In this document: piece after piece, positions 6,515-56,337 of the stretch
Layout: every line of letters starts with the position of its first letter
How positions within the stretch are numbered: position 1 is the first letter of the stretch
NCBI GenBank assembly: GCA_030390025.1
Contig: CM059432.1
Span: 85,872,001-85,936,000, forward strand
Reading direction: 5' to 3'
Source: Squalus acanthias
Taxonomy: Eukaryota
DNA length: 64,000 bases
Notes under the pieces: model-generated
Seen by the model: only the letters and a program-made list of their open reading frames with translations
Told to the model about the DNA's origin: nothing
Databases searched by the model: none
Program-made: the position numbers and the translations under genes

Positions 6515-6560
6515 GCTGAGTGATGCAATTGACAGCTGACTCAGTTCCTGTTTAACATTG
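6515..6560 (+). promoter_or_regulatory. Candidate proximal promoter motif cluster (C/EBP-ATF TGATGCAAT; AP-1/ARE-like GCTGACTCAG; forkhead-like TGTTTAAC)
   Basis: Motifs at 6521-6529, 6535-6544 and about 6549-6556 in non-repetitive DNA about 370-400 nt upstream of the ATG; a possible 5'UTR donor AAA|GTGAGT lies at 6696. Confidence 0.3.
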
Positions 6561-6921
6561 TCTTGTTGAATGAACATATGAGCCTTCAGTGACCTCATTT
6601 AATTATAGTTCTTAGCATTAAAACGATGCTCTGGTAACCGAAAGGCTGTCCAACCACAGACCACACTAAGGGATATGAAATGACTGAGAAGCAAAGTGAG
6701 TGATTTAATTAAAGAAAATGAATTCACTGCTAGAGCATAGCTTCCTTTAACGGTAAATGAAAAGTTTATGCTATTTCAATTTAAAATAATGAAATTCAGT
6801 ATGTGCAGATATTTTGTTCAGTTGATTAACCATTTTCTTTTTCTTTTCGCAGGTTAAACTAAGTTACTTAAAAGTGGAAGCTAAAATTGCACTTAATGGA
6901 TACTGAAAGGAAGTAATCAAG

Positions 6922-7524
6922 ATGGAAGATGCTTTTATTGCATTTTGTGGCCTTGCCAACAAAAATGATACCCTTAAACCAAATGAAGTGTCTTTCATTG
7001 AAGAAATTTGTTTCACTGAAGGTGTAAACCTCCTTGTACATCTGGGATTTGTGTTTTGTTCTCTTGTTGGTCTTATTGTGATTAAGTACAAACGGAGTTC
7101 CAGTACGACATTTCATATCGACAGTGGCTTGAGAGGCTGGATCCATTTTCCATGGCACAATATTCGATGGATATTAACATTCTTCTACATTTTTATATCC
7201 GCCTGTTGTGTAGGAGATGGCATTTTGTCACAGTTGTACTCGAAGTTTGACAGACCATTTATTTATATACCAGATGCAGCACAACTAGCCTCTTGTCTCC
7301 TTTCAATCATCTACTATGATGTAGCTGAAAGTGCAAATGCACCCACATTTTTGGTGCTCTTTATCTTCCACTGGCCTGCTGCTTGTAGCATTAATGCATT
7401 TAAGGTGTATCAGCTGTATTCACAGAGGTTCATCACCAGTGATCTGACTTTTCTTCTTGTCTGTATCTTGGTTTCAATCTATGGATTCTTTCTCATTCTG
7501 GAACTCGGCATATTCTTTAAAAAG
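6922..7524 (+). CDS. SUR-like coding exon 1 (entire TMD0, 201 codons)
   Basis: Acceptor ttttcgcAG at 6851-6852; in-frame TGA at 6904 upstream of ATG 6922 (AAGATGG context); donor AAG|GTAAGT at 7525. [10 protein letters not shown]...[15 protein letters not shown] matches SUR TMD0. Confidence 0.93.
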
Positions 7525-10500
7525 GTAAGTCCTGAATTACAATTTGAAACAAAAATTACATTACTTTTTAAAATCCAATTATATTATGGTAATTTTAAAA
7601 CATTGCATGAAATTACTTTGGGCCATTACACCAGCACATAGTGGGCATGATCTTAAAACTGCTCCTAATTTGACACCAATATCCATTAGATTGGTAGACT
7701 GCAGCATGGCTGGTATCAGTAGGGTTGCTGTTTTGAATCTGGGGCTGAGGCAGCAGAGCTTTACTCCATGTCTAATCAAGCTTTGGTGAATTATGGACAT
7801 TCCACTGTAATTAGTAATATGAGAAGATAAGCCAGAAGTTCTTTGACTATAATGGTAAATATTTCAAAGCTGACCTTTCATTATTTTGGCGTTTAAAACA
7901 AATTCTCACGACTGTATAGGATTTGTTGAAAACCGGTTAGTTTTTTTTCATGTATGAACAATATGAGCTTTGCTGATTTTAATGCTATTTGCATTTATAT
8001 CTAAGCCTGCTTGTATTTTTTCTGTGTATTTTACCATTAAATGCTGCTTGAATTTGGGTTGGTATGAGTTAATGTTTTAGACCAGTTGACTCATTTAGAG
8101 GAACAAAATAAGTTTGAGGGTATTAAAGGCCTTCGATTCTTAATTGTAACATGTGGATTTAACTAGAAAACTGAAACTGAGAATACAAGTACTTAATTGT
8201 TATTATTTATGTCATTTTCTTTGCAGTCTTTAAAAATCGACTAAATATAGAATTGTTTTATGTGGGATTGTAATGGTTTTATTTTGTTTTCTTACAGTAT
8301 TGGAGGAAGTAGGTTAAATTGCTTTATCAATTAAATAAAAGGTGTATTGTATGTAATTAGATGCATTGTGTGTGTTTGTGTGCGCGCACGTAAGTATGTA
8401 TTCCATAATTTCACTATTTTCATGAAAAAGTATCGGCAAACTTGGGGCGGGGAGGGAAAAGCAGAACGAAAAGAGCTGCACTGTTTGTCAGAATAATGTT
8501 GCTTTCAAATGACATGATGATATATTTTGGTATAACTGATGTCACTGCATTTGTGTTTTGTGAATATTCAGATTTCCCAACTGCATTATTGCAAAGAATT
8601 TTAAATGCCTTTTGTATACTACTGAAATATGTCATGATTGCAAACAATTTTTGTCAAGTTGTATGCTGAACTAATACGTAATTTATTTAATTTAGGGTTA
8701 CTTCTGTCCAGGGTATTCCAGAGACATCCCACCTTTAGAACTACAAGACCCAGAAAAAAAATTTCATCAACCTTATGTCAATATTTTGTCGCAGATTACC
8801 TACACGTAAGGGGAGATGTGAAGCATTTTCTAAATAAATTTGTTGTCTACAGCTTAATAATGACTGCTGTTCAGTGGTATCCTCCCAAGACTTTACTAAA
8901 ACCGGAATCCAGTGTGAATACATTTTTCTTGATGAATAAGATCAAAATGGTTCAGAAATAATAGAGGCAATTTTTAAAAACATAATTATTGTGAAAATGA
9001 TAGTGTCCAAATCTAAAAGAAATGTCGACTGCAGTTTTTTTTTAAGTGATACATTTAGGTGTCAGTCTTGGCTAAGTAGTAGCACTCTTTCCTCTCAGTC
9101 AGAAGGTTGTGGGTTCAAGTCCCACTCTAGAAACTTGAACACATAATCTAGGCTGACACTTCCGTGCAGTACCAAGGGAGTGCTGCACTGTTGGAGGTGC
9201 CATCTTTGAGTCCCCATGGCACTATTCAAAGAAGAGCAGGGGAGTTCTCCCCATGTCCTTGCCAATATTTATCCCTCAGCCAACATCGCTGAAACCCATT
9301 ATCTAGTCATGTATCTCATTGTTATTCATGAGACCTTGCTGTGTGCAAATTGGCTGTCCTGTTTTCCTGCGTTACAACAGTGACTACACTTCAAAGGTAC
9401 TGGCAGTAAAGCATTTTGGGATATCCTCAGTTCATGAAAGGCACTATATAAATGCAATTCCTTGCCTTTATTTAGTCACAAACCCAGTACGCTTCCAGAC
9501 ATTCTGCACCACGTTGCTGTATTATATAGAATTTCTGGATTGTGAAATTGCAATTTTCCATTATTCAGTTTATCTCAAGTAGTAAGTATTTTGGAGACAG
9601 GTTGTAAGTTGACTGGAATTCAATAACCTGAGAAGACCGAGTAACTCAAGTGATTGGAGGCCAAAAAGATAAAACAAGCGTAATTTTTGCCTGGTAAAAA
9701 TACAATATTCATTTTGGATTTTGAGGAAAGATTGATCCATTTTAATTTTATTTTAAATAAGAATATTCTTTTGAGGCAGTTCTGTACAGCAACACTTCTT
9801 TTAAACTAAGTGTATTGAGAATGATATTTCCTACCTCTTCTTCAGTCCTATACAGCATTACAGAAGGGGAGAGAGTTGATGAGGGTAGTGTGGTTGATGT
9901 TGTGTATATGGACTTTCTAAAGGTGTTTGACAAAGTACCAGGGATTGTATTTTTAAGTGAACTGTTGAAACTTTACATCTTTTATGTTAGGAGATCAGTA
10001 CAATAAATTCTAGAAAACATTAAAGGAAAATTAAAATGGATACAAAATCATAGATTGTGGGTGTGTGATTTTCCAATATGTGCTCCTGGCGGCTGGGAAC
10101 ACGCTATTAGAAAATTTATCCTCAAGTGTTGTTCTGAGTTGTTCAGATACTTGGTTAACAGCAACACTGTGTTCCAGTTCATTAGCCAACTTTACCCCTG
10201 TACCACTGGTTACTATCAAGTTCTAGGTTTGTCCAGCAGAACATCAGTGAAAGCAGACTCCTCCACTAAGAGGTGGAAAGTCTAAATGGAAATAAAGCAG
10301 TGTTTTGTATAAGATAATAGTACTAGCTTAAATAGTTTAACTCCAGGTGTGTGCTTCGAAGTTTCCTTCTGTACTCTATCAACTTTCTGTATATTTTTAA
10401 GTCAAGTACACACCATTTTGTGTTTGTTTTAATTTCAGTTACAGTTTTCTTCCACACCTGAAGGTGCTGTCTCATGCTGGAGTACAGTTCCAAGTGTGAT

Positions 10501-13500
10501 GGCAACCCTCTCGTATTTTGCCCTAGTGGTCATTATTCACGTGTAAGCCTAGACTGTGAATGTTACACACTGTTTGACTGAGAAGGTCCTTACAGCCAAG
10601 CCCAAACCTCTTCTCACATATGTTGTACACTGGATAGTGATCAGGAGAAGGAACCCTGACTGACTTTTTTTTATCCTCCCTAGACCAGGGAGCTGGGGTC
10701 AATTATAGCGTCCAAACTGAAGCTAATTCAGCAGAGACTGACCCTGTGACATTTTGGTGCTATATCATGTGTGTGACGTTATCTACTAAGTCTCAAGATT
10801 CTATGTTGGCTTATTCAGAAGCAGACACCAGATCCCAGATCAAATCCAATTTAATTTCTATTTTCTCAGTTTTCGGGTCAACTGCATTACTGCAAACCAG
10901 ATTATTGCATAAAAGGCAAGTCTTCGCTCTCTCTCTTTTGAGTCAGAAGGTTATGGGTTCAAGCCCACTCCAGGCCTTTGCGCATAATTAGGCTGACACT
11001 TCAGTGCAATACTGAGCCAATGTTGCATTGCCGGAGGAGCAATCTGTCTGTTCTGGTGGGTTTAAAAGATCCCATGGAACTCTGCAAAGAAGAGCAGGAA
11101 GTTCTCCTGGTATCCTGGCCAACGTTCCTACAGCACCCAACACTACCAAAAGCCAAGTAACTGGTGATTTATCTAATTTAATGTTTGTGAGAGCCTTTTC
11201 TGTGCGAATTGTCTACCTTGTTTACCTTCACTACAACAGTGCCTTCTGTTTTATTACCTAGGTGGATTTCATGGCTTTTAAAAAGTGGTTATCGGGAGCC
11301 AATTAAGATGGAGATTCTAGGAAAACTCTCTCAGGTTGTTTTTTGTTTAGCACTGTTTCTTGTTAGAATGTAGACTTTTTAGAAAGGTTCATGTATAATA
11401 CAAAAATGGAATTATACACACCCTATGTAAAAACAGTTAAAAAATTTTAAACTTCTACTGGCGTTAGTGCAAAAATTTAATTCCAGGCAAGTTGAGGTAC
11501 TTTAGAGAAACCTGGCTGTTTTTGGCCTTTTCTAACCCAGAGTGCTGAAGTCAATTTTGGTGCCGCAACCACTGCCCTTGGTAGGATTAGCACAGACCAG
11601 GCTTGAACCTGGATCTTTTGGTACCACACCATGCATTTAACTTCCTCTTTCTATCTCATCACACCCTTAAAATTATAAGAAATAAGGTTAGCCAGATGGG
11701 ATCTCAATTATTTTGTTTGTTTTGGGTTGCATACTCTAAGAAGCATAATAATTCATCAGTGTGCACTATAGACAACATTTCATTAATTTCATTTATAAAT
11801 GATCATAATCTACTGTGAAAATCTTATGTTTATCATTTTGTTAGCTCCACCATTTGAATGTATCATTCTTGTCAGATAAGTCAATTTGTATGTGTAGAAG
11901 GAATTATATTAGTAAAAAGGTAAATTCTGGAGCATTTAAAACAAAAATGTAAACAGAATTTTGAAATGTTATCCACAGGCAAAATTAGAATTGTTTTTCT
12001 TTTTATCTGAGAACGTTGGCTATTTAATAGTTTTCTCCCCCCTCCCCCCCTTTCCTGCCCCTGCTCCCTACACTGAAGGCTTTGGGTGTGCATCCATTGC
12101 CACCCTTGGGTGCCAATCTATTGCTATCCTTAGGTGCCTTGTCTAAAGGACCATTTTCCTGTGTGAGTGTAGCCTTGGTGTTGGCAGTCTAAACTTTAAA
12201 ATTGCCCAATCTTATGTTTGTATTTTCTTTTTAGGAAGAAACTGCACAGAAAAATTTTGATTTATTAAAGATGCATTATGATAAGCAAAAGGTAAGTAAG
12301 CTTGTATGAAATCCTTGGGATCTAGATAATGGTGTGTATTTTTTGTAAAGGAGGATGATGCTTTGAGCTTAAATTAATGCTTTTTATTATGAATTTTAGG
12401 AAAATAAACCTTCAGGAACAGCAGGGTCGCGAGATCTAGGAAAGGTTTATTACAAGGCTTTTGGGAGGCCTTTCCTGATAGCAGCATTTTTGAAGATTGT
12501 AGGCGATCTGGCAGGGTTAGGTGGGCCACTCTGCATTGATGGTATTCTCAGATTTGTGGCTGCAGAGTCAAAGGAATCGGAGAAGGTAAGGGTTCTTGTA
12601 TGTTTTTCTGCGCTAACCATACCTACCATTGAGAATCTGGCCATGTGGCCCAGATGCAGGGCATGGTAATATAGTGGTTATGTACAGGACTAGTAACCCA
12701 GAGGTTGTGAGTTTAAATCCCACCACAGTAACTTGTGAAATTGAGTACAATCAATCAATTTTCTTGGGAAAAGGAAAACTTTTCCACCTAACTGAATGGA
12801 TCTCATGTGAGCCAAAGTCTTAACTCTCCAACTCTCCTGGCTTTTGGTGAGAGGACAGTCAATGGTGATGCGTACCTCTGGGAAATGATGATTTACAAAA
12901 AGTAGAGTGGGTAGCAATTCTACAATGCCAAACTTGTAGAAGTACCACATTAGTTTTATACTAACCAACAAAAAAGGATAATACAAGATCTTTCCTTGTA
13001 GCACTCCATGTATTATGTAATACATAGTATTACTTTTTTCATTTTCTTAGTTTTTGCCATTTCCCTCTTTTCACTTGCCTCTCCCCTTGCGGTGTAGCAT
13101 TCTCCAGGCTCACTCTGGGTCTCTTGCAACGCTGGTCTGTATCTCTGCTTGTGTGACTGTTGGCTGATTTGCATGCAGACTTTTTTTAAATCCTCACCGT
13201 CCTTGGAGGAGTGCATGGCTTCCAATGAAAGCCTAGTTGAGAGGGGCAGTCTGCGTCCCACCACTGTGCGGCACACTGCGTTCCCACCCCGGCACACTGC
13301 GTTCACAGGCCTAACTGCAAGACACAGCATTGCCATCAATAAAGTATATACTCTTAAGGCCTTAATCTTGCACGCCTTTTTTAAAAAAAACTGTATGCTA
13401 ATATGACCTAAAATGGTGCTGAATATAAATCTATGACATGTGAAAACAATTAACTATGCCATGTGAAAACAAATAAATGCTCTGAAAGCCAGCACAGGCA

Positions 13501-19500: not shown

Positions 19501-22500
19501 AGTGACTGTGTCCGTGCTGTCAGTTTGCATGTGCTGTTTCAGTTATTGCCTCTTATCTTCCTCTTACTAACAGCGCCTGTGTATTTATCTGTTGAGCACG
19601 GAAACTAATGGTTTATGGTGCGGCTATCCACAGCTCTCTGGAGGAAATTTGAATGAGCTGATTTTCGTCAGTAAGTGTGGACAAGCAGATATGAGGGTCC
19701 TAAAGCTGATTGTCTATGGAAAACAAAGTTGGTCTGCATAAATGTATGTATATGCTTGTGAAGAGGCATTGGCCATCTTTAATAGTCTAATTAATACTGT
19801 TCTATATCCTCACTTTACACAGGGAATACATTTCGTGAGTTTCTGGGAATTTACTAGTAACGGCTATGTATTGGCGTTCTTGATGCTGTGTACAGTGCTC
19901 CTTCAGAACTTTTGCTTACAGATATCATATTACATTGTTATCCGGGATGGAATACACGTGAAAGCAGCTCTGCAGGTAAGGTGCCTTTTTCTTTCTTCCT
20001 CTCTCTCCCTTCAGCTCATTTTCTCCATCCTGTCTCCTCTTCTAAAGGTGTTGACTTCTTTCTAGGGTCTGATTCTATGGAAGCCCAGTGACGACCTATG
20101 CCTCACCAAAATGGCCATTCTTCAGACAGAGTCTAGACAGTATGTAGGCGATTCAGCTGTGGGGGCCTGATCCTATCCTCACCTGGCATCCAACAGCACA
20201 TTCACCAGCAGTTTTTGGATAGCAATCGGGAGCCTGAATCTTGGGGCTGGATTTTCTGGGGGTCAGCGGGTGTAATCGGTGGCAGGTCGGGTGGGAAAGT
20301 TTTTTTTTCCCCCCCGAGCAGGTTGGGACCCCACTGTGAACCCGCCACTACGCGCCTTTCCCCAATGTTGGTTCTGTCAGCTCTGAGCAGTGGCGTGTTC
20401 ACAGTGGGGGACCCAATTCAGGTAATTAGTGGCTTGTTTAAAGCCACTTAAGGATGGATTTCAGCTCACCTTCTGCATTTGGCAGCTCCCCCACGGGGTC
20501 CACACTGGTCATGGGCCACGTCTGTGAAGCTGAGGTGAGAGTTCAGTGGCCATTGAATCAGCTGTTGTATTGACAGCTTCAAATGTACAGTAAAAGCTCC
20601 CACCTTACAGAGATATCTTCCCTCAGCCACAAACTCTTCCTCACTGCATTGCCACAACAGATTCACCATGCTGCAAGTCTTTACACAAGTCTCCATCCAG
20701 TCTGCCCTCATTACCTCTCTCGCCATTCACAGATCGCTTCTGTCATCTCTACTTCACCTGCCATCTATTCCATCAGCATGGGTGCCCTTTATACTCTCTC
20801 ACCTTGGCCCTCAGAATCCCACCACGATCAGTCCCAACACCAGCAGCACCAGGCACACCAGCAGCACCAACAACACCACCAACCTCCGCAAACACCTGAT
20901 GCTGCACAGGACACATTGCTGCCAGGGATGGCCTCACCATGGCCGGATTTACTTCACTTGATGCTGTACACCCTGGCTGCCACATGATGCGCCAGGTTGG
21001 CACCACCCCACACCAACACTATAAAGCATCCCTACAATGCCCAAGCCATTACTTCACACTCATCACCATTGCGGGGGTACTGTTATGTCTCATCATTCAC
21101 TGCAACTCACTAAACCACTTCCAAAGGTGCACACAAATCTGTCCAAGAACACACACTGTTGAAAATAAAGGTTTCAATGTTTGACACCACATTAACAGAA
21201 ACTTTACATGAACATTGCATAAAACACCCAAGTGCCTACCCTTGTGTGTTGTTAGTTGGTATGATTGGACTAGGATGAGGGTGAGTGTGAGGGGTGGCTA
21301 GTGAGATGGGATGTGATAATATAGAATAGAGCGGGCTGGGTGGAGGTGCAAGGTAAGTTAGTGTGAGTAAGGATGTGCAGGAGTAGGGTAGGGAAGGCAG
21401 AGTGATGGGGATGAGGTTGAGTGTGGCTTTGTACTACCGTTTCGTGATCTACTGAGATCATTGAAAGGTTTGCGGCACTGCACCCAGGTCCTCCTGACCA
21501 CATCCCTGCTTGTGCCCTCCTCTGCCATGTGTAACCAGGTTGTGTTGGTGTCCTGGGGCGATGTCTTCTGCCCATCGGATGGGAAGAGGACCTGTGTGCT
21601 GTGACTCCCTCCATAAGCATTTACTGATAAGCATATGGAGGTATTCATGGGAGAGCCTGGGTGCAGCCCTGCACCTCTGCAGTAATTGTTGGTGTTTGCA
21701 GCACATCAATGCTGTAGAACACTGACAGTACAAATGTCAGAATAAAGTTGGCCATGGTCCCTTTTAAGGAAACTGGCTGATGACGTGTCATCAAATGACG
21801 TCATCAGACCCGCTTCCTCTAATTGGCCGGCAAACACGCTGGGCGGGCTTAACAAACCCAATCTAGGGAAAGTCATTTCAGAGGCCAGGATGGAGACAGC
21901 AGAGGGATCGGGACCTGCCATCAACGTCGCCCACCATGGACCCGTCAGAGTCAGCAAAATCATGGCCTTGGTTTCGCTCTCCCACTCTTTCTTCTCCCCC
22001 CCCCCCTTCGTTCTCTTCCCCTTTTCCTTTTCTCTTTCCTCCCTCCCCTTCTCTTTCCTCCCTTCCCCATCTCTTTTCCCTGGGAGGAGGTGCAGCACAG
22101 ATTCACGAGAATTATACTAGGGGTAAAAGGGTTAATTTAAGAGGGCAGGTTGCTGCCTAGGCTAGGCTTGTATTCGCTTGAATATAAAAGATTAAGGGGT
22201 GATATAATTGAGGTGTTTAAGATGATTAAAGGTTTTGATAGTGTAGATAGGGCAAAACTTATTCTCTGCTGGGGGAGTCCAGAATAAGGGGCATAACCTT
22301 AAAATTAGAGCTAGGCCATTCAGGGGTGATGTCAGGAAGCACTTATTCACACAAAGGGTAGTGGAAATCTGGAATTCTCTCCCCCAAAAAGCTGTTGAGG
22401 CTAGGTCAATTGAAAATTTCAAAACTGAGATCGATAGATTTTTGTTGGGCAAGGGCATTCAGGGTTACAGAACCAAGGTGGGTAGATGGAGTTAATATAC

Positions 22501-25500
22501 AGATCAGCCATGCTCTAATTGAATGTTGGAAAGGCTCGAGGGGCTGAATGGCCTACTCTTGTTCCCATGTTCCTTTCCCCTTCTCTTTTCCTTCTCAATG
22601 GAAATTTACTTTTTGGTATCAAGTCTGTTATTGGGCAGGACACAGATTGGTAACTTTTTCAAAATCAAGTCATTTAATGCACTCTGGAGGTAATATTGAG
22701 ACTTCAGAGTTCTAAACAAGTTCCTCAAGCCAAAAAGGTTTATAATGGTCACACAGATTACTTAGGCAGTATGTCCAGAAGAGGGTCTTGTGGCTGTAGA
22801 ACTATCAGGTTTGGACTGATAAGTGATAAGTAACATTCGTGCCACACAAGTGCCAGGCAATGACTATCTCCAACAAGCGAGTGTCTAACCACCGCCCATT
22901 GACATTCAATGGCATTACCATTGCCGACCCCTCCACCATCAACATCCTGGAGGTCACCATTGACCAGAAACTTAACTGGACCAGCCACATAAATACTGTG
23001 GCAACAAGAACAGGTCAGAGGATGGGTATTCTGTGGCAAGTGTCTCACCTCCTAACTCCCCAAAGTCAGGAGTGTGCAGAAATTGCCTGGATGAGTGCAG
23101 CTGCAACAACACTCCAGAAGCTCAACACCATCCAGGACAAAGCAGCCCGCTTGATTGGCACCCCATCCACCACCTAAACATTCACTCCCTCCACCATCGG
23201 TGCACCTTGGCTGCAGTGTGTACCATCTACAAGATTCACTGCAGTAACTCAGCCAAGGCTTCTTTGGCAGCACCTCCCAAACCCGTGACCTCTACCACCT
23301 AGATGGACAAGGGCAGCAGGCACATGGGAACACTATCACCTGCAAGTTCCCCATCAAGTCACACACCATCCTGACTTGGAAATATATCGGCGTTCCTTTA
23401 TCGTTGCTGGATCAAAATCATGGAACTCCCTCCCTCACAATACTGTGGGAGTACCTTTACCACATGGACTGCAGCGGTTCAAGAAGGCGGCTCACCACCA
23501 CCTTCTCGAGGGCAATTAGGGATGGGCAATAAATGCTGGCCCTTGCCAGCGATGCCCACATCCCAGGAAAGAATTAAAAAATAAAAAACGATTCCTACTC
23601 CCATGCTGCCATGAAGCAACCTTGTAACCAGTTCTTCTGATTTAATTTTTGGGGTAAAGTCATTGGTGCAAGGTACTGCTGTTTGTCCTGTCATTAGTAC
23701 CTATGATTTTTACTGAGTGCCTCTCTAATTGTAGAGCACCTCAGGATGCTGCATTTCCACTTTCATCAATAGCTGGACGTATAGCTTGTCAGTCTATTGC
23801 CTGGAATCTGTTGCACATCCATACAGCAGATACTCAATACAGTTCAGGAGGTGAGCTTCAGAGTAATTTTCAAGAAGTCTTAGCTTTACTGACGCAAAAC
23901 TTTGTGGTCTTAAGGGTGTTGCTCCGAACTATCCAACACAAATTATTTATTTTGTGGGACAAATTTACAGTACGCAAGGACCTCCTCCTCCCCTTGCAGG
24001 TGGGGTCGTGGCTAACAGCAAAGGGCTGTCTGTTGATATTCTGTCTGATGGTGGCAACTATGTTTCTAGTTCCCAGTACTTGTCTTGTTTGAAGTCACTA
24101 CAGCTGAATCTCCTCACAGAGCACTCCTGTTTCAGCCAAACATAAATCAACCAGGCTTTGATTCTGGATCTTGCATGATGGTAAGAGGAGAACAATATTC
24201 TACATGGGACACTCCCTTATTACAATTTCCCCCCACAGCTGATGGTGGTAATTGTTCCATTCCTAGCAGGATGGATACTCCCTTTCAAGGGCCTGGACTC
24301 GGGACAGTGTGGGGAATGGAACAGGTCATATGGCATATCTACTTCCTGAGTTGGAGGCAGTACAGTTTGTTCTGGATCATTTCCAAACATTGGTAGATAA
24401 CATTGGTAGCTGCAGTCTGGCTGATCCACTGAATCACAGTATAGAGAACATAGTGGCGATTTCACTTAGTTGTCTCTATTCACGCTTGCAAGTGGTAGTT
24501 TACCCCTCCACAAGGTAGACCAAGAAATATTTAAGATTTGGGGTTATCTGGAAATAGAGCTGTTCACCTTTCTGTAGAAACATTGGCATCTGTATTTCTG
24601 CAGAAGGACAGAGGTTTCATAGGCCTTTTCCTGGATGCAAAGGTTTCTGTATGTTTTGTCTCCATTTTCTTTGATTCCATCGGTAGCGCAAAAGATAAAA
24701 GCAAAGGAGGTGAAAATTAGCCTCCCACCCGCGATCCAATCTCTTTCCCCCCCCCCCCCCCCGCGATCCGATCTATTTCTCTCCCCCGCCCCCCCCCCGC
24801 GCGATCCGATCTCTTCCTCTCCCCCTTCCCCGCGATCCGATCTCTGACACCCCCCCTTCACGAACCGATCTCTTCCCCCCCCTCCCCCCCCCCCCATCCC
24901 GTCACAATCCGAATCCCCGCCCCCCCCCCCCATCCCGTCACGATCCGATCTCTTTCTCCTCCCCCGACCCGATCTCGGCCTCTTTCCCCCACCCCCCAGC
25001 GACCCGATCTCTCCCTCCTCCCCACGATCTTCCCGTTTGCCGGGGACCATCCCCAGAGGTCTTCGGCTGCTGACTTGTAGCGCAGGCTTTCATGCCTGAC
25101 AGCCAGCCAATCTTCAATCTGGTTGGCTGTCGGGCAGCAAACGGAGTAAAAAAAATTCTACTGAGGTCTTGCCATTAAATTTGGTAGGACCTCCACTTTC
25201 CTGGCATTTCCTGATTTCCCAGCCACTGACAGATGCCCCCATTCCCTCCCCGCCTCTCTAAATATCGGACCATTGTGCTGTTTTCATGGGTATGCTTTGT
25301 GACTTTTGATTTAAAAGGGCACTTAACTGTTTACACGAGCTGTAACTTTCATTCATGCTGCTTTATAGAAGTGGGTGTAACATAGTAAATATGAGCCACC
25401 TTTGATCAGTAACATCAGTGCGTTTCTATGTTATTTCTCTAGACAATGATTTACTTGAAAGCTTTGTCACTGCCTGTGTGGATCTTCAGTGGGGGCCATC

Positions 25501-46500: not shown

Positions 46501-49500
46501 TCTCCCAGTGTTATTTATCACCCAACCAATACCTTAATTTTTTTTTAAATGATCTTGTCATTTGTTTCATTGCTGTTCGTGGGACCTTGCCTTGCAAAAA
46601 TTGTTTGCCGCGCTTCCTACATTATAATAGTGACTACGCTTCAAAAGTTCTACATTGGCTGTAAAACGTTTTGGGACATCCTGAGGTTGTGAAAGGCGTT
46701 ACATAAATGCAAGTTCTTTCCTTTTTTCTTACTAATTGAAGATGTAATCTGATTTATTTGCTTGCATTGCCTCTATTGCGTTGGTTCTTCTAGAGTCCCA
46801 CTCCTGTTGTACTGTTAAGTTTAGTTTTGGATGAAAATTGATCAATTTCAGGTGATGTGGTAGGTAACTCTCCTTTTCTACATAGTTGTGAACTTGGGAT
46901 CATGACTTAAATTTGTTCCTTGGTCTGTGTGGCAATGAATTTACCAGCTAAATCGTTAGAGGAATGAGTGGAATCTTTGTGATTATTCTGTTCCAAGCAC
47001 CATCTGACTGCCACTCAAGTTTGTTTTATTTTATACATGTTGCCCTTTCATTCAAATGCCTTTTACCAGAATGTTTATGTCATCTTATGGGTTAGAAAGA
47101 GTTATATGATCATTTTCTTTAACCTACATTTTAATTATCTTCCAGCTTTTAAAGCTTTACAGTTGGGAAGGTATCTTTATCAAGGCTGTTGAGGTGGCAA
47201 GGGAGAAGGAGCTGAAGTATATGCTGAAAGGAGCTGTTTATGTCATTGCAACATGTGAGTTGTATTCAGAAATTATCATTTATGATAACCTTTGATAGCT
47301 TATGAATCGGAATCTGTTCAAAGCAGTTGTACAACATTAGTGTGCAATTTAAGAAATAATTACCTAACTGTTACAGGCAGTAAAATCTACTCCTGATAAA
47401 TCATAGTCATAACGGCACTGAAGGAGGCCATTCGGCCCATCGGGTCCATGCCGACTCTCTTGTAGAGCAATCCAGTCAGTCCCATTCCCCCGCTCTATCC
47501 CCGTAGCCCTGCAAAGTTTATTTCCCTCAAGTGCCTATCCAGTCTCCCCTTTTTTGCACTAAAAAAAACTTTGAATTACCCATTAATTTGCAACTAACAG
47601 CAAAGTGGGAATTTAGTGCTTAAAAAGTTTCATTGTACTTTGAATCGAGGAGACTGCAACACAAAAGACAGAAACTTTATTCTATATTAATAGATGTCCT
47701 GTGGAGCTCATAGTGAGTCAAAGGACTCGCTATTTTATGGCAACAGCGTGTTTATGCCACGCAGGAGATATCAAGTTTGAATAAATCAAATTGCATTATT
47801 TAAAAAAATTTATAATATTTTTACTGAGATGTAGTAATTGAATTTCACAATTTCTGTCAATTATTCTGCAAAAACTGGAAGTGAGTGGCCTTTATATTTT
47901 ATGTATATATATTCCTTTACCTCTCTATTTAATTTATATCCCTTCTCATTTTTAAAACTGAAAATACAGAGTAAAGTGGTATGCAAGATATACTAATTAG
48001 GGGTAAATATCTAGTATTTAGCAGTAGAGGTGAGCAGTAATGTGATTAGCTGCATTTGGGGACAGTCCTTGGCTTTGGTAGCACTGAATCATAGAAATTT
48101 ATGGCACAAAAGGAGGCAGTTCGACCCACCGTGTCTGTGCCGGTTGAAAAAGAGCTATCCAGCCTAATATCACTTTCCAGCTCTTGGTCTGTAGACCTGT
48201 AGGTTATGACACTTCAAGTGCATATCCAAGTATTTTTTTAAATGTGATGAGGGTTTCTGCCTCTACCACCCTTTCAGGCAGTGCATTCCAGACCCCCATC
48301 ACCCTCTGGATGAAAAATGTTCTCCTCAACTCCCTTCTAATCCTTCCACCAAATCTTTGCCCCCTGGTTATTGACCTCTCTGCTCGGGGAAATAGGTCCT
48401 TCCTATCCACTCTATCTAGGTCCCTCATAATTTTGTACACCTCAATTAAGTCTCCACAGAATCTCCTCTGTTCCAAAGAAAACAGCCCCAGTCTGTCCAA
48501 TCTTTCCTCATAGCTAAAATTCTCCAGACCTGGCAACATCCTCGTAAATCGCCTCTGTACCCTCTCTAGTGTAATCACATCTTTCCTGTAATGTGGTGAC
48601 CAGAATTGTACGCAGTACTCTAGCTGTGGCCTAACTAGTGTTTTATACAGTTCTAGCATAACATCCCTGCTCTTGTATTCTATGCCTCGGCTAATAAATG
48701 AAAGTATCCCGTATGCCTTCTTAACCACCTTATCTACCTGTCCTGCTACCTTCAGGAATCTGTGGACATGCACACCAAGGTCCCTCTGTTCCTCTACTTT
48801 TCTCAGTATCCTTCCATTTATTGTGTATTCTCTTGCCTTGTTAGCCCTCCACAAATGCATTACCTCACACTTCTCCGGATTGAATTCTATTTGCCACTTT
48901 TCTGCCCACCTGACCAGTCCATTGATATCTTCCTGCAGTCTACAGTTTTCTTCCTCACTATCAACCACACAGCCAATTTTTGTATCATCTGCAAATTTCT
49001 TAATCATGCCCCCTACATTGAAGTCTAAATCATTGATGTATACCACAAAAAGCAAAGGATCTAGTACTGAGCCCTGTGGAACCCCACTAGAGACAGCCTT
49101 TCAGTCACTAAACCACCCGTCGACCATTACCCTTTGCTTCCTGCCACTGAGCCAATTTTGGATCCAACTTGCCACTTTCCCTTGGATCCCATGGGCTTTT
49201 ACTGTTTTGACCAACCTGCCATGTGGGACCTTGTGAAAGGCCTTGCTAAAATCCATGTAGACTACATCAAATACACTACCCTCATCGACCCTCCTTGTTA
49301 CCTCCTCAAAAATTCGATTAAGTTAGTCAGACATGACCTCCCTTAACAAATCCATGCCGACTGTCCTTGATTAATCCTAGGTTGGGGATCCTGGAGTTTG
49401 ACAGTAATGAAATGGGACAGCTGGAGTTTGGCAGCATGGTGGGTCATTTGATCTGGCATAATTGTGAAGGAGAAGCCTGGGGTTGAGTAGAACTGTACAA

Positions 49501-52500: not shown

Positions 52501-55500
52501 GGGGGGGGGGGGGGGGGAGGCTCTTTAGCCATGGTTGCAACCCACCTAGGAGAAGGTACTCTGAAGATTAAAACCTTGAGAAAGGTAACGGGAGACCGAC
52601 TCAGCTACTTTTCTCCAGTAAGTGGCTCAAGAATTTCAAGTTCAAGACCCTAGGGCAGAACACAATGGACAAACATAGGGTACAAGAGTAAAGAAGTAAT
52701 GAGGAATTTATAGAAAATATTGGTTAGGTCATAGTTCGAGTATGTTTGTAAGTTTGGTTTGTCCATTATAGAAAGGACATTAAAGCTATAGAGAGCGTAT
52801 AGCATAGATTCACTCGGTTGATGCCTGGGGCGGGAAACTATAGTTTTGAGGAGAGACGTGATATAAGGACTATTTCCACTGGACCAGAGGAGGCTGAGGA
52901 TATTTCAGTGATTTTTAAAATTATAAAGAGTTTTGATAGTCTTTCTCTATTCATTCTATTTCCTCTAGTTGTAGAGTTGACGACAGGTGGACATCGATTT
53001 AAAATGATCATTGAGAGTGAGAAGGGAGGTTAGGAGAAATTTTCTTTACACAACAGGTTGTTAGAGCATGAAATGCTTTATTACAGGGAGTGATCGAGGT
53101 ATAGAGCATTGCTTCTTTTCAGAGAAAATTGGATAAATATTTGAATCGGAGAAAGTTACAAGACTACGGTGAGAGCACAGGACAAGTGAAATTAGTTTTG
53201 GATTGCTTTAGCAAAGAGCCAGTATAGACTTGATGGGTTAAATGGCTTCCTTCTGTGTGGTAAGTTTTATGGTTCTACGAAGTGTCTTCTAGGCAGCTTT
53301 AGCAATGGGGGAGATGTGGGAGGTCAATTTGATGTCAGAACAGATATTTAGGCCAGAAAAGTCAACAGATGAAAGGCTAAGGAAAGTAGGAGATGATGGT
53401 AGTTGGCTGGACTTGAGAGACTTAAAGAAACAAGATTTTCATTGCCCTATTAAAGGTTACAAAGGGGAACAAGATGTATAGATTCAGCCATTGTACAGGA
53501 GATTTGTGCAGTGAGAGCATGCAACCTGAAGGAAGTTGACGAATGTAGAATGAAATCAGTAGCAAAAGAGTGGATAGGGTTTGGTGGTGGATAGGGTTGA
53601 ATGATGAACTAAGAAAGTAATTGACATGAAGAACAACAGACTGGGAGAAAAGACACTTATGAATATAAACAAATAAAAAACAACTTGAAAGGCCAGAGTT
53701 TGTGGAGGAGAAAGAGTTATTCTGGTTGAAAGGCACTCCTTGCTTTAATGTTTCCCTTTTAATAGAAATTAAACTCACCAAAACGTTTTAAGACATTTTT
53801 TGTTCTGCATGGTTGGAACATACACTTGGCAGGAAATAAATTCACTTTTGGCTGGATTTTTCCTTTATTCTTTTAAGGCTAGATTTTGAAAGACCTTGAA
53901 GTAAATATTTTGTATGCTTCAGCGTAGTCTTCATTTCTTCATTTCCTTTTGTGTGGTGAAATATGGATGTTGTGCACTGAAAGTTACAGTGCTAAAACTG
54001 ATTGAAGTGTTGCTTTGATCACCTTGTGTAGATCTCTATATCATGAGATCAACGAAATAATTGGGACCTAGCAGTTAGCAGCTGTATAACTGATATAGTG
54101 CTATATTTCAGAGCTATAGCAAGGATCCATTGTATCAACCAGCAATTTTTTTTTTTTTTTAAAGTGCAGGCCCAGATTTAAAACACCGAAAATTGAGGAT
54201 TCTTTGAGGGGGTGGGGGTGGCGGGGGGTGGGGGGGCGGCCGGTGAGGAGTCAGTCCTCAATGTTAATTTACGCAATACTCCTTTTTTAAAAAAAAATTT
54301 GATTTTAGGGGTTTTATACAAATAAATAAATTGATTCGTAAAAGCTTTTTAAAATATAACTTTATAGGTATAAGAGAATTTTCTTCCTAAGAATGGAGCA
54401 ATCCAAACAATTTATTGTCTAGATGTTAGATTTTTTTTTTTAATTTTTGCAAATATCTTTTTGCAAAGGTTGAGGAATGTGAATGCTGATGTTGAATGCT
54501 CTATGATTGAATTTATTTATGGCTCTCACTATTGGATAACGTAAAGCATTTTCTTTATGTAACTTCTATCCTTTATAAAGCTTTTTGTATGTTATCAGAG
54601 ACTATTTAATCAAATTGAATATTTCATTTTTTTTAATTCTTTGTCTTTGCAGTGTTTCTCACCCAGGTGACACCTGTTTTAGCAACAATGGTGGTAGGTA
54701 AACACATCTAATTCACCATTTTGATTTAATTGTTGTGTGTATCTTTACTGAGATTAATACATCAACTGAAACATACTAGCACCACAGATTACGCTATAGG
54801 TTTGCACTAACAGTGCAGTACTGCAGCACTTTGAAGGGTGGGTCTAAGTTTGTATCTATAATTCCCTCTTTCTCCTCTACCCCAATCACACTGTTGAGTT
54901 ACCAATCTTAACTATGTCATGTTAAGTGAATCTTAGTAGCTAGGCACAAGGAACAATTTTATAAGCTAATTATTTTAATGTAAAATCTAACCATATCAGA
55001 ATATTGTGCAATGGCTGCTATGTTCCTGATCTAACATTAAAAAAGATGACATATGGAAATGTACAGTAGGCCAGTCAGCATCTGAAAGAGAAAAGATGGG
55101 TTAATATTTTGGGTGTCACCTTCACCAGAACTGAATTGAGAACAGAGTTCTGAGGGACTGTCCGACCTGAAATGTTAACCTTTCTTTTCTCTTAGATGGT
55201 GACCAACTTGGTGAACATTTTCTGTTTTTATTAAACATTTCCAACCTTCATGTTTATATTTTCTGAACTGTATTTTTAAATAAAATGAATGTAAGAAGAA
55301 GGTAATTTGATTGAAAGATCCAAAGTGGATTGAAAATGAGAAGCAGTTTGAAAATGTTGTGTCCTCTCTTTCCCCACTGACTATCAATGATAAAGGGCAA
55401 CAAATTATGCTAATTGGAAATTAATGCACCGCTCAAAGTTCTTAGTGATCAGTACTTTAAGGCCTCAGGGTGTCATGGATATTAATCTGAAAGTCTGAGC

Positions 55501-56337
55501 TAGAAGTAAGCTGTAGTTAATGTCTGGAATTACAAAAATCCTTGGTGTTGCACTTTTGGCTGTCATCTGTCAGTTTGATCATAAGTCATAGTGCTGAGTT
55601 TTGCGAAGGGTAAAAAATTAATTGTGGCACGCACACAAAATATGCAGCCGTAGCTTTAACCATTCTTCAATCATAATGTGCCTCTTGAGTCTAATTGAAG
55701 TGCAGTGCCAACTACCAGTACCTTTTGACCTTTTGGTATTCATGCCAACTGGCATTCATTTGGTATGCAGATGAAATGAAAGAATAATCAAAGTATTGTT
55801 TTGCTATAACTCATTTTAGCTCAGAATGTATTTAATGCAAATTGAATGTCTAGTTATAGTCCTAGTTTCACCAGCTGTATCATTTAACTGCGTCCATGGA
55901 GTGTGCATAAAGATTTAGTTCTGGCAGTTACTGTTTTGTAAAATAAAACTCTTGGAAGTACTGCATTTTAATATAGTCAAAATTAATTAGTTTGGATGCA
56001 AAGTACATTTTGTTTTTTAAAAACTGCAAATGTAATTTATTTTCCTGAAACCTTTTGCAGATTAAAATGTATTTACGTTTGAAGAATAAAAAGATTACAT
56101 TTGAAGAACTATTAATGATTTGTGCAGCTAATAATTATAAATTAAGTATACAAAATCTGTGGTCTAATCTGTGAGGAATGTAGGGGATCTTCAATTTTAT
56201 TGATTTTAATTTTTTTTTCTTTTTAGACTTTCAGCATTTACTCTAGTTTGAGTGGATCAGCACTCACTGCTAACATGGCTTTTTCAGCACTGGCACTTTT
56301 TGATAAATTTAATTCTCCACTACTTATGTTCCCGATG
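6922..56337 (+). CDS. SUR-family ABC transporter (ABCC8/ABCC9-like), 5' part: join(6922..7524,8696..8805,11262..11334,12235..12291,12400..12585,19823..19975,25443..25598,27623..27811,47146..47254,54653..54693,56227..56337); 596 aa, 3'-incomplete
   Basis: Eleven exons with AG/GT boundaries splice into one open frame. The translation is collinear with SUR1/SUR2: [26 protein letters not shown]...[14 protein letters not shown]...[46 protein letters not shown]. Orthology to ABCC8 or ABCC9 is not resolved, so no symbol is given. Confidence 0.93.
8696..8805 (+). CDS. SUR-like exon 2 (L0 loop; [36 protein letters not shown])
   Basis: tttAG| ... AC|GTAAG, 110 nt, ends in phase 2; matches SUR1 KPPEDLQD...QPFVNLLSKGTY. 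Confidence 0.9.
9058..9465 (+). mobile_element. tRNA-derived Deu-domain SINE (SacSINE1-like)
   Basis: A/B-box head (tggctaagtagt...ggttcaagtcc), central cccatggcactattcaaagaagagcaggggagttctcc, L2-like tail aaggcactatataaatgcaa. Confidence 0.8.
10920..11241 (+). mobile_element. Deu-domain SINE copy, 3'-truncated just before exon 3
   Basis: Homology to 9058-9465 runs as far as ctacaacagtg. Confidence 0.75.
11262..11334 (+). CDS. SUR-like exon 3 ([24 protein letters not shown])
   Basis: cctAG| ... CAG|GTTGTT, 73 nt, completes the phase-2 codon; matches the lasso segment WMN...PIDL..IGKLP. Confidence 0.85.
12235..12291 (+). CDS. SUR-like exon 4 ([19 protein letters not shown])
   Basis: Pyrimidine tract-ttAG| ... 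AAG|GTAAGT, 57 nt; aligns to SUR1 RALTNYQRLCEAFDAQ. Confidence 0.85.
12400..12585 (+). CDS. SUR-like exon 5 (…[35 protein letters not shown]…)
   Basis: ttttAG| ... AAG|GTAAG, 186 nt; start of TMD1. Confidence 0.92.
14257..15745. mobile_element. Non-autonomous PIF/Harbinger derivative (Myb/SANT relic on - strand)
   Basis: Degenerate TIRs ggcatagaaattg / gaatttttagccc; minus-strand RKGAPRVS…[20 protein letters not shown] resembles a Myb/SANT-like domain; acidic transposase-like tail on the + strand. Confidence 0.65.
14727..14865. repeat. Penelope-like terminal sequence in fold-back arrangement
   Basis: Perfect 37-bp inverted repeat 14727-14763 / 14804-14840; the same tail is seen at about 57270-57315 and 63700-63732. 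Confidence 0.7.
15972..17620. mobile_element. Non-autonomous PIF/Harbinger derivative (Myb/SANT relic on +, deleted transposase on -)
   Basis: TIR-like ends gggctagaaact / gaatttctccc; [23 protein letters not shown]…QCRKQFNEL; contains a CR1 tail insert at about 16245-16385. Confidence 0.7.
18089..19061. mobile_element. Non-autonomous PIF/Harbinger derivative (Myb/SANT relic on +)
   Basis: TIRs ggggtagaaactgc / gcaatttctcccc; [22 protein letters not shown]…[10 protein letters not shown]. Confidence 0.75.
19823..19975 (+). CDS. SUR-like exon 6 ([20 protein letters not shown]…[18 protein letters not shown])
   Basis: acacAG| ... CAG|GTAAG, 153 nt; matches SUR1 GVYFVSSQEFLANAYVLA...GINLRGAIQ. 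Confidence 0.93.
20243..21967. mobile_element. Non-autonomous PIF/Harbinger derivative (Myb/SANT relic on -)
   Basis: Degenerate TIRs; minus-strand [14 protein letters not shown]…[17 protein letters not shown]. Confidence 0.7.
22160..22575 (+). mobile_element. CR1 3' fragment
   Basis: [15 protein letters not shown] coding end plus CR1 tail. Confidence 0.85.
22820..23585 (+). mobile_element. Non-LTR retrotransposon 3' fragment (CR1/L2-group; family also at 30665 and 61158)
   Basis: [12 protein letters not shown]…[20 protein letters not shown]; tail gggcaataaatgctggcc…cacatccca followed by an A-rich run. Confidence 0.85.
24725..25030. repeat. C-rich minisatellite (about 30-bp unit, CCCGCGATCCGATCTCT core) inside a GC-rich element
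   Basis: About 10 degenerate units separated by long C runs. Confidence 0.8.
25443..25598 (+). CDS. SUR-like exon 7 ([10 protein letters not shown]…[13 protein letters not shown]…IAIPIQ)
   Basis: tctctAG| ... CAG|GTATGT, 156 nt; same length as recalled for ABCC8 exon 8. Confidence 0.93.
26049..26793. mobile_element. MITE (Harbinger-type)
   Basis: 18-bp TIR GGCCCGGAATTTGCGGTC / GACCGCAAATTCCGGACC with one mismatch. Confidence 0.8.
27623..27811 (+). CDS. SUR-like exon 8 ([19 protein letters not shown]…[15 protein letters not shown])
   Basis: tttcAG| ... AAG|GTAATG, 189 nt; ABCC TMD1 motifs. Confidence 0.93.
27836..28470 (+). mobile_element. L2 LINE 3' fragment
   Basis: Encodes LDYSNALL…LHWLPV-type sequence; tail aaaggtgctatataaatacaagtt. 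Confidence 0.88.
28860..30155 (+). mobile_element. L2 LINE 3' fragment (RT region)
   Basis: [20 protein letters not shown] and LHWLPV motifs; same tail as 27836-28470. Confidence 0.9.
30665..31178 (+). mobile_element. Old copy of the LINE family seen at 22820
   Basis: Collinear similarity to 22860-23365; serves as the target of an RTE insertion. Confidence 0.65.
31179..31910 (-). mobile_element. 5'-truncated RTE-clade LINE with 10-bp TSD
   Basis: [21 protein letters not shown]…LRWTGH…RLPKQALY; (GAA)n tail; TSD TCCAAGTCAC at 31169-31178 and 31911-31920. Confidence 0.92.
31932..32692. mobile_element. MITE with AT-rich core
   Basis: TIR ggcccgtattttctgatc / gatcagaatatctgggcc. Confidence 0.75.
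32808..34285 (-). mobile_element. CR1 LINE fragment
   Basis: Minus-strand ORFs with [22 protein letters not shown] and [11 protein letters not shown]. Confidence 0.93.
34380..35300 (-). mobile_element. Very old LINE endonuclease-region relic (L2/CR1 group)
   Basis: Minus-strand [10 protein letters not shown] resembles the APE-domain 'DILCLTETW' motif; heavily decayed. Confidence 0.35.
37225..38087 (+). mobile_element. CR1 fragment with internal deletions
   Basis: FADD, RPHLEYC and CR1 tail. Confidence 0.85.
38271..40142 (-). mobile_element. CR1 inserted into another CR1 (host about 38088-38270 and 40143-40300, + strand)
   Basis: RT motifs on the minus strand; TSD TTGATAA at 38264-38270 and 40143-40149; the host frame reads …[13 protein letters not shown]…. 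Confidence 0.9.
40300..40640 (-). mobile_element. CR1 3' end
   Basis: [18 protein letters not shown] plus tail. Confidence 0.88.
40890..42290 (+). mobile_element. CR1 LINE fragment
   Basis: ORFs 41132..41680 and 41708..42067 with RT motifs. Confidence 0.93.
42295..43130 (-). mobile_element. Highly decayed CR1 3' fragment
   Basis: Residual CR1-like minus-strand sequence with no ORF. Confidence 0.5.
43620..44232. mobile_element. GC-rich Harbinger-type MITE with TAA TSD
   Basis: TAA|GGAGGCAAAATT…ACCCAATTTTTCCCCC|TAA; right TIR shared with 1244-1737. Confidence 0.8.
45972..46000 (+). repeat. (GAGAA)n microsatellite
   Basis: Read directly from the sequence. Confidence 0.8.
46268..46720 (+). 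mobile_element. Near full-length Deu-domain tRNA SINE (SacSINE1-like)
   Basis: A box ggctcagtggt, B box ggttcaagcc, Deu-like tgccgtcttttggatgagatgttaaac, L2-type tail. Confidence 0.85.
47146..47254 (+). CDS. SUR-like exon 9 ([36 protein letters not shown])
   Basis: ttccAG| ... T|GTGAGT, 109 nt; completes the ABCC IK-LLKLY(A/S)WE motif after a 19.3-kb intron. Confidence 0.93.
48088..49378 (-). mobile_element. CR1 LINE fragment (same subfamily as 40890-42290)
   Basis: ORF 48204..49055 [20 protein letters not shown]…. Confidence 0.95.
49718..51380 (+). mobile_element. CR1 LINE fragment
   Basis: ORFs 49668..50699 and 50701..51195 (frameshifted RT) plus tail. Confidence 0.95.
51545..53280 (+). 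mobile_element. Decayed CR1 interrupted by SINE-like insert(s) at about 52230-52665
   Basis: Degenerate [14 protein letters not shown] and FAD remnants; CR1 tail at about 53220-53280. Confidence 0.65.
54653..54693 (+). CDS. SUR-like exon 10 ([14 protein letters not shown])
   Basis: ttgcAG| ... GTG|GTAGGT, 41 nt, phase 1 to 0; same size as recalled for ABCC8 exon 11. Confidence 0.87.
55065..55255. repeat. Decayed Penelope-like termini in inverted arrangement
   Basis: Similar to 57215-57315 on both strands. Confidence 0.45.
56227..56337 (+). CDS. SUR-like exon 11 ([37 protein letters not shown])
   Basis: ttttAG| ... ATG|GTAAGT, 111 nt; matches TF...AFASLSLF..L..PL. Confidence 0.9.

Follow-up and report, generated by a model that had tools for sequence, protein, structure and literature searches.

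Vertebrates are taken to have two sulfonylurea receptors (SURs), SUR1 (ABCC8) and SUR2 (ABCC9), both obligate partners of Kir6. The origin of the SUR-Kir6 partnership has been termed a long-standing question (PMC5655142). SUR1 residues W51 and F132 contact Kir6 (PMC5655142), as does K205 (PMC9700523). A third SUR gene of Squalus acanthias begins in a 64,000-nucleotide stretch of contig CM059432.1 (positions 85,872,001 to 85,936,000 of the forward strand; the window), and its product has the TMD0-L0-TMD1-NBD1-TMD2-NBD2 plan and the SUR-type TMD0 fold of SUR1 and SUR2. These two are its best PDB matches (~42% identity), and it shares with them a degenerate NBD1 (DD), a canonical NBD2, Y230/W232, and R1246/R1300. 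Unlike them, it has no adjoining Kir6 gene, half of its introns differ, its TMD0 is weakly constrained, and W51, F132, K134, and K205 are missing; E203 and C1142 are mostly R, and N437Y, T1242N, and S1238Y/F are further differences. Invertebrate SURs (the amphioxus P0157 and P0124 types, hemichordate and echinoderm expansions, annelid SURs, and insect Sur) are 43-46% identical to it and share an NH-type TMD1 motif, a one-exon TMD0, and the absence of W51 and K205, but the third SUR has a jawed-vertebrate host and fixed D585-K586, K1280, and E1291 that are absent from the invertebrate rows compared. A search with its TMD2 ranked invertebrate SURs above vertebrate ABCC8/9. MRP1-3 (ABCC1-3) also have the five-domain plan, a degenerate NBD1, a catalytic NBD2, a K/D pair in TM6, and two conserved arginines, and are the model for the working proposed below; however, TMD0 is 17% identical to that of MRP3, PDB scores were 690-760 bits for MRPs versus 990-1088 for SURs, and MRPs fell outside the SUR clade in every tree. 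Teleost abcc8b is likewise an extra fish SUR, but carp abcc8b nests inside ABCC8, which rules out identity with the third SUR.

The coding sequence starts at the ATG at 6922 and runs on the + strand through 11 exons with AG/GT ends to 56337. These exons comprise 596 stop-free codons and cover the N-terminal 38% of a 1573-aa protein encoded in an open frame by 30 coding exons, of which 19 lie beyond the window, up to 86,084,605 on the same contig (C8). Exon 1 (6922..7524, aa 1-201) encodes the entire TMD0 with its five helices and C9-C30 pair. L0 starts in exon 2 (8696..8805, aa 202-237), where R210 and I212 occupy the SUR1 E203 and K205 positions, forms its lasso in exon 3 (11262..11334, aa 238-262), and ends in exon 4 (12235..12291, aa 263-281). 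TM6 with K313 and D317 lies in exon 5 (12400..12585, aa 282-343), and TM7 with Y379 and R384 in exon 6 (19823..19975, aa 344-394). The gene model assigns a 10-residue motif and TM8 (Y439) to exon 7 (25443..25598, aa 395-446), TM9 and the next loop to exon 8 (27623..27811, aa 447-509), aa 510-545 to exon 9 (47146..47254), TM10 to the 41-nt exon 10 (54653..54693, aa 546-559), and TM11 with the lineage-specific D585-K586 to exon 11 (56227..56337, aa 560-596). Exons 1-6, the part covered by the read test, are joined in read contigs from two studies; for introns 1-5, contigs bridging the GT..AG ends were present in 3, 4, 4, 4, and 4 of four runs, respectively, all presumed to be RNA. The first coding exon has a 5' untranslated part (6853..6921, + strand) that follows an AG at 6851-6852. 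Matches to read contigs X4 and X5 begin at the 6853 side and leave 432 and 234 letters 5' of it; one or more further 5' exons lie upstream of 6853. A custom exon finder was discarded after it detected 2 of 30 known exons. The open 1573-aa frame, the splicing, and orthologues in 13 species rule out a pseudogene, and the 154-Mb contig with its vertebrate neighbor genes rules out contamination.

All 10 PDB sequence matches of TMD0 were ABCC8/ABCC9. The TMD0 model (pLDDT 85) gave 41 fold matches at E<=0.001, every one a KATP/SUR entry, with MRPs appearing from E 0.055. A SUR-type TMD0-L0 precedes the ABCC core, and the preliminary description's intact spliced open reading frame with SUR-specific TMD0 and L0 is borne out by the 596 codons, the read joints, and the SUR-only TMD0 matches. 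Atlas look-ups returned only generic TMD0 clusters or weak matches. Trees with MRP outgroups placed the protein inside the SUR clade (SH-aLRT 100; 0.997 in FastTree with coral) and outside the ABCC1-3/6 clade. Whole-protein identity, computed on a 1561-aa draft and not on the 1573-aa model, was 42-46% to ABCC8/9 and to invertebrate SURs alike. An earlier hand count of 19 identities in 52 positions between exon 7 and SUR1 was reproduced exactly against bat ABCC8 (19/52), to which the ABCC8 of S. acanthias itself is identical at 47/52 positions of the same exon. The exon 7 motif, whose ABCC8 counterpart is GQICNLVAID, had been called invertebrate-like, and its NH(M/V/A)S-type core is indeed common to sea urchin, annelid, coral, and two amphioxus SURs.

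The careful tree (19 of 85 rows, coral outgroup) grouped amphioxus SUR P0261 with ABCC8 and ABCC9 at 99/99 and left the third SUR outside, a placement recovered in the further trees. The third SURs form their own clade (100/100). Amphioxus P0157 is a candidate for the closest invertebrate relative, with support of 0.95 in FastTree, 90 in the 31-row quick tree, and 63/36 in the careful tree. The ABCC8 and ABCC9 of S. acanthias occupy the ABCC8 and ABCC9 places, and the third SUR nests with neither, the position outside both that the preliminary description had foreseen. Judged from these sequences, the SUR duplication predates the amphioxus-vertebrate split, and the best reading of the gene is a pre-vertebrate SUR paralogue that appears to be retained only in cartilaginous fish. 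A lamprey "ABCC8" that is basal in a published tree (PMC4458048) was rejected as a member of the lineage; its supplement sequence, read by eye and unaligned, has an ABCC8/9-type TMD0 with W51.

Orthologues, auto-named "ABCC8/9-like", were found in sharks, rays, and a chimaera, 13 species in all. Word-indexed and clustered sequence searches found none in mammals, other bony vertebrates, or lamprey, although one search behind the bony-vertebrate absence overlooked full-length ABCC9s. The trees and searches agree with an ancient lineage absent from mammals; it had been credited to this fish, and its range is the cartilaginous fishes as a group. No description of the lineage turned up in literature searches. 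Separate ABCC8-Kir6 and ABCC9-Kir6 loci, whose presence had been left to be checked, both exist on contig C10, apart from the third SUR on C8, with Kir6 directly downstream of each SUR; the models of these two SURs are partial, with a few loop boundaries wrong. Because both genes exist elsewhere in the genome beside Kir6, the third SUR is not an ABCC8 or ABCC9 orthologue. None of the 19 Kir matches in the genome, a count that is a floor, fell on C8. The genome holds three Kir6 types alongside its three SURs, and the flanks of the third Kir6 (contig C27) lack a SUR over 80 kb upstream and 30 kb downstream.

In the alignment, W51, F132, and K205 are kept in 8/8 ABCC8/9 proteins and 0/12 third SUR orthologues. 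The lineage retains C6, C26, H36, E128, Y230, and W232 (SUR1 numbering). Among ABCC8/9 pairs, residues 1-72, the part that SUR1 turns toward Kir6, show 85-90% identity, versus 42% between elasmobranch and chimaera third SURs, the core domains of which are 68-72% identical; the Kir-facing segment is the least conserved part of the protein. An RxR in the TMD1-NBD1 linker, which we take to be the position of the RKR retention motif, was absent from all eight orthologues with a located linker; duck and pig have it, and two catfish ABCC8s do not. The preliminary description had left a choice between a distinct KATP regulator and a Kir-independent transporter, and the latter is favored as the probable role because the Kir6 contacts are missing. 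We lean toward an explanation in which the gene, an intact SUR-family paralogue outside the clade of ABCC8/9 and their amphioxus relative, was probably lost from bony vertebrates and encodes a likely Kir6-independent, MRP-like, ATP-driven exporter.

Three contact residues and a conservation profile are indirect evidence; another TMD0 surface could still bind Kir, and the third Kir6, with no SUR adjoining it, is a possible partner. Insect SURs have been tied to KATP-like currents without Kir6 (PMC12258255). The paralogue is unlikely, though by no means negligibly so, to be still regulating a Kir channel such as the unlinked Kir6 on C27 through a differently built TMD0; sharks would then have a third type of KATP channel that differs in its sensitivity to ATP and drugs. 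The match of the TMD0 fold to KATP structures, the retained C6-C26, H36, and E128, the equal numbers of Kir6 types and SURs, and the Kir6 without a SUR beside it would all suit this, but the Kir6 contacts are absent in 12/12 orthologues and conservation is lowest in the Kir-facing segment. Zebrafish has an unlinked Kir6.3 (PMC5367309), yet no teleost orthologue of the third SUR was found; unlinked Kir6 and the third SUR are therefore not co-inherited. An attempt to model TMD0 together with two third-Kir6 copies, run without alignments and without a control, scored 0.00 and carries no weight here.

NBD2 motifs (K1377, E1499, and H1530) are invariant in 12/12 orthologues, and NBD1 is degenerate with D865. 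To our knowledge SUR1 and SUR2 are not transporters, and intact NBD motifs fail to demonstrate transport because both proteins keep them; a degenerate NBD1 with a catalytic NBD2 is non-discriminating. Charges fixed in the lineage at cavity positions are K313, D317, R384, D585, K586, R1236, K1280, R1290, and E1291. Three of the six glibenclamide pocket residues tested in PMC5655142 are retained; Y377, R1246, and R1300 are kept in the pocket, and the changes are R306K, N437Y, T1242N, and S1238Y/F.

The proposed exporter would descend from a stem chordate with at least two SUR genes, one of which would have gained a tightly constrained TMD0 (W51, F132, and K205) and become the KATP regulator while the other retained the invertebrate-type TMD0. 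ATP would occupy the degenerate NBD1 site (D865) and the catalytic NBD2 site, and NBD closure would turn the core outward and let go a substrate from a cavity lined by the fixed charges, an organic anion or conjugate being the most plausible candidate. That cartilaginous fishes keep the sole vertebrate survivor of a pre-KATP SUR, still working as a transporter, is a credible but more tentative proposal. A non-transporting nucleotide sensor with a non-Kir6 partner, perhaps the state common to invertebrate SURs, is doubtful. The motifs and exon layout resemble those of invertebrate SURs, whose own function is itself debated (PMC12258255), and the NBD motifs fit sensing and transport equally; however, the weak TMD0 constraint speaks against a fixed membrane partner at TMD0, and the lineage-fixed cavity charges suggest a ligand.

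The third SUR and the ABCC9 of S. acanthias have 11 of 22 comparable intron positions in common (2 more by eye), compared with 13/18 between its ABCC8 and ABCC9. Its TMD0 lacks three introns and retains the one-exon layout of invertebrate SURs. The gene is embedded in a TERF1-SBSPON-RPL7 block among vertebrate neighbors on a 154-Mb contig, and these neighbors differ from those of the Kir6-linked ABCC8 and ABCC9 loci. TERF1 was recognized by a motif and a PDB match; Pfam TRF and DUF5537 genome searches, run without a working control, gave no match. The human block presumably has no ABCC gene. A fast-evolving genome-duplication copy of ABCC8/9, relocated to another chromosome and drawn outward in trees, is improbable. 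It would account for the long stem branch (0.58-0.61), the even identity to ABCC8/9 and invertebrate SURs, and the placement within the chordate clade (87/93), but the ABCC8/9 stem is equally long (0.56), a vertebrate-only clade of the third SUR and ABCC8/9 was rejected under a site-mixture model (p-AU 0.004), and the 11/22 differing introns, the one-exon TMD0, and the gene neighbors all stand against it. Old horizontal acquisition from an invertebrate by the cartilaginous fish ancestor would fit the patchy vertebrate range and the invertebrate identity of the best non-chondrichthyan TMD2 matches but is very improbable for a protein that groups with chordate and not protostome or echinoderm SURs, has at least 11 introns in common with ABCC9, and sits in vertebrate surroundings on so long a contig.

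The third SUR lacks the channel-gripping residues and lies outside SUR1/SUR2, and it could therefore reveal the role of SURs before channel regulation. A third vertebrate SUR older than ABCC8/ABCC9 and without the Kir6 contacts provides a natural point of comparison within vertebrate cells. F132 and a SUR1-like TMD0 are already present in the amphioxus sister of ABCC8/9. If the exporter reading is true, the third SUR, shark ABCC8/9, and the amphioxus sister together bracket the step from exporter to channel regulator, and what the third SUR transports would be the ligand that the sulfonylurea pocket has lost. In records from sharks, rays, and chimaera the gene goes under "ABCC8-like" or "ABCC9-like", names that may mislead physiology and expression work.

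The SUR-family gene in the window is real, conserved and spliced. A tblastn search with two shark proteins, followed by splice-site refinement, placed 11 of its coding exons in the window (G000:C8:85,872,001-85,936,000 of the 3.7-Gb Squalus acanthias genome), from the ATG at 6922 to 56337 with AG/GT borders throughout and 596 codons. The whole gene (window plus 180 kb of adjoining DNA) has 30 coding exons, 4722 nt, and encodes 1573 amino acids with a single terminal stop. Contigs from four runs in two studies, guessed to be RNA, were mapped over 6000-20500 (exons 1-6). Their joints coincide with the modelled GT..AG borders, for intron 1 in 3 of the four runs and for introns 2-5 in all four, which argues for spliced transcripts. 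Low-depth contigs (runs X1, X4 and X6) extend exon 1 into intron 1 at 7525-8278 as unspliced or retained-intron forms. Ordinary LINE frames resembling reverse transcriptase fill the introns and upstream DNA (2921-4174, 41063-42064, 48207-49322, 50680-51192 and others), and multi-copy sequence occupies ~60% of the 444-kb region around the gene.

The gene is a SUR. All 10 PDB sequences matched by exon 1 are ABCC8 or ABCC9. An AlphaFold model of exon 1 has five long helices (pLDDT 85), and its fold matches at E<=0.001 are KATP/SUR entries in 41/41 cases. For the full-length orthologue from sawshark, scores are 990-1088 bits against SURs vs 690-760 bits against MRPs.

The gene is neither ABCC8 nor ABCC9. 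Separate ABCC8-Kir6 and ABCC9-Kir6 loci, which the preliminary description set as a check on its divergent third paralogue, are both present on contig C10. The ABCC8-type locus (45.70-45.95 Mb, minus strand) is followed by Kir6 at 45.694 Mb, and the ABCC9-type locus (82.62-82.79 Mb, plus strand) by two near-identical Kir6 genes. These SURs cluster with amniote ABCC8 and teleost ABCC9 (100/99, careful IQ-TREE). Two alternative last exons in ABCC9 (G000:C10:82,784,758 and 82,787,815) are presumably those expected of SUR2A/2B. Identity to bat ABCC8, by domain, is 78-85% for the shark's own ABCC8 vs 28-54% for the subject protein, and the 19/52 identity first noted for exon 7 was reproduced against the bat protein. 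None of the 19 Kir matches in a genome search, a minimum count, lies on C8. The Kir6.1-like genes 3' of ABCC9 (L026 and L027, 82.818 and 82.854 Mb) face each other and differ mainly in their last residues; the pair is either a recent duplication or an assembly artefact.

Trees were built with FastTree (52 and 85 rows), quick IQ-TREE (31 rows) and careful IQ-TREE (LG+C20 PMSF, 19 rows, coral outgroup). All four concur that the amphioxus P0127/P0261 type is the sister of ABCC8+ABCC9 (99/99) with the subject lineage outside. P0261 lacks TMD0, so this support does not derive from TMD0. The subject lineage is monophyletic (100/100) within a chordate group supported at 87/93, and its pairing with amphioxus P0157 is insecure (0.95, 90, 63/36). 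Constraining it with ABCC8/9 cost 22.8 log-likelihood units (p-AU 0.004), which bears out the ancient origin first proposed. The intron comparison agrees on age. The gene shares 11/22 comparable intron positions with the shark's ABCC9, and two more by eye from printed splice sites; ABCC8 and ABCC9 share 13/18, and the other five fall in loops whose boundaries are uncertain. Together, trees and introns place the SUR duplication, we infer, before the amphioxus-vertebrate split, and the gene very probably belongs to a third SUR lineage of vertebrates, one that predates ABCC8/ABCC9. TMD0 is encoded by one exon in this gene vs four in ABCC8/9. Among single-frame fragments, those nearest mollusc, spider and echinoderm SURs cover TMD0 from end to end, and their similarity stops where exon 1 does; in vertebrate-type fragments the breaks come at residues 50, 97 and 138. 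The one-exon TMD0 would be ancestral. SURs of at least three types occur in amphioxus, and those of hemichordates and echinoderms form a separate expansion (85-row tree). The P0127/P0261 type has a SUR1-like TMD0 (46% to bat ABCC8) with F132 and K134, making it a candidate proto-KATP regulator.

Exon 1, searched against 322 candidates, matched 11 proteins (56-94% identity), every one from a cartilaginous fish. Full-length and TMD2 searches found orthologues in 13 named shark, ray and chimaera species (P0011 counted as chimaera from tree placement and from P0012), although the full-length search missed full-length ABCC9s. The best 120 of 723 TMD2 matches comprise 15 chondrichthyan entries, then 105 rows at <=49% that include no named vertebrate; eight unnamed rows all fall among invertebrates (85-row tree). 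Absence from mammals, as first proposed, therefore agrees with the TMD2 matches listed, and retention in "this fish" was too narrow. An index-free search of 50% representatives, in which a relative >50% identical could hide inside the lineage's cluster, gave one match in 111 to the lineage (78%; next 30%), and 0/89 short fragments had it as best match. Among the 10 ABCC genes surveyed in lamprey, ABCC8 and ABCC9 are the only SURs (PMC4458048), and both sequences in the survey's supplement have ABCC8/9-type TMD0. Restriction to cartilaginous fishes implies that the gene would have been lost in bony vertebrates and probably cyclostomes. The Callorhinchus model P0012 (2255 aa, named ABCC9) belongs to the lineage and is ~680 aa too long, probably through a duplicated segment or model error.

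Orthologue proteins are already in databases under automatic names (ABCC8-like, ABCC9-like or ABCC9); the lineage itself appears undescribed. No description was found in full-text searches outside subscription journals, some of them aimed at SUR structure, insect SUR and synteny. Term searches of the main text found no ABCC8/9 or SUR mention in the whale shark genome paper (PMC8455134) or a study of ABCC6 evolution with sharks (PMC5902450). In their passages on the family, a fish ABC review (PMC8696203) and a zebrafish KATP study (PMC5367309) give SUR1 and SUR2 as the sole SURs. A mention in some figure or table is possible.

On C8 the gene (plus strand) lies between spondin-TSP1 and DUF5537 exons. 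A scan of 123 of 640 flanking frames, excluding 86.216-86.354 Mb, identified a TRF1-type Myb exon (85.74 Mb, plus; 95 bits on TRF1, 59 on TRF2), somatomedin-B and spondin-TSP1 exons (85.78-85.80 Mb, minus), the DUF5537 exon (86.12 Mb, minus), RPL7 (86.36 Mb, minus) and a short-chain dehydrogenase (86.364 Mb, plus). We take this to be the human 8q21 order TERF1, SBSPON, C8orf89, RPL7, RDH10, with the DUF5537 exon as C8orf89. By this order, the gene would be at a position where human has none. SBSPON and C8orf89 flank one human position in a table row of PMC9887333.

SUR1 positions were placed by motif on an alignment of 12 orthologues and 8 ABCC8/9 sequences, with residue numbers past 621 partly provisional. 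W51 and F132 contact Kir6.2 at an interface on the N-terminus, TM1, ICL1, ICL2 and early L0 (PMC5655142); K205 contacts ATP, and C1142 lines the cavity for the Kir6 N-terminus (PMC9700523). W51, F132, K134 and K205 are present in 8/8 ABCC8/9 vs 0/12 orthologues, and the E203 position is R in 11/12 orthologues. Over residues 1-72, identity is 85-90% for pairs of ABCC8/9 proteins vs 42% between elasmobranch and chimaera orthologues (core 68-72%); shark and ray orthologues share 62% there and 74-82% in the core. The invertebrate rows compared also lack W51 and K205 (F132 is present in the amphioxus type sister to ABCC8/9), so W51 and K205 are ABCC8/9 features that the subject lineage probably never possessed.

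The nucleotide machinery is intact with the ABCC pattern. At SUR1 drug-cavity positions the lineage has fixed K313, R384, Y439, D585, K586, K1280 and E1291, which differ from SUR1, together with family-wide R1236 and R1290. The R1236 equivalent in MRP1 binds the LTC4 carboxylate (PMC5655142). From these residues and the missing Kir6 contacts we lean towards a protein that would export an anionic ligand independently of Kir6. SUR1 counts against this reading, as it has the same nucleotide motifs yet no known transport. The protein might instead still partner a Kir channel, such as an unlinked third Kir6; the lineage keeps several TMD0 residues of SUR1 and the genome has such a gene (L031, G000:C27:4,545,894-4,547,252, minus strand). 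An IRF-3-domain exon lies 65 kb from L031, and the flanks of L031, 80 kb upstream and 30 kb downstream, contain no SUR. Kir6.3 is described as zebrafish-only and SUR-unlinked in the KATP passages of PMC5367309. L031 suggests an older origin for the Kir6.3-type gene, if it is the counterpart.
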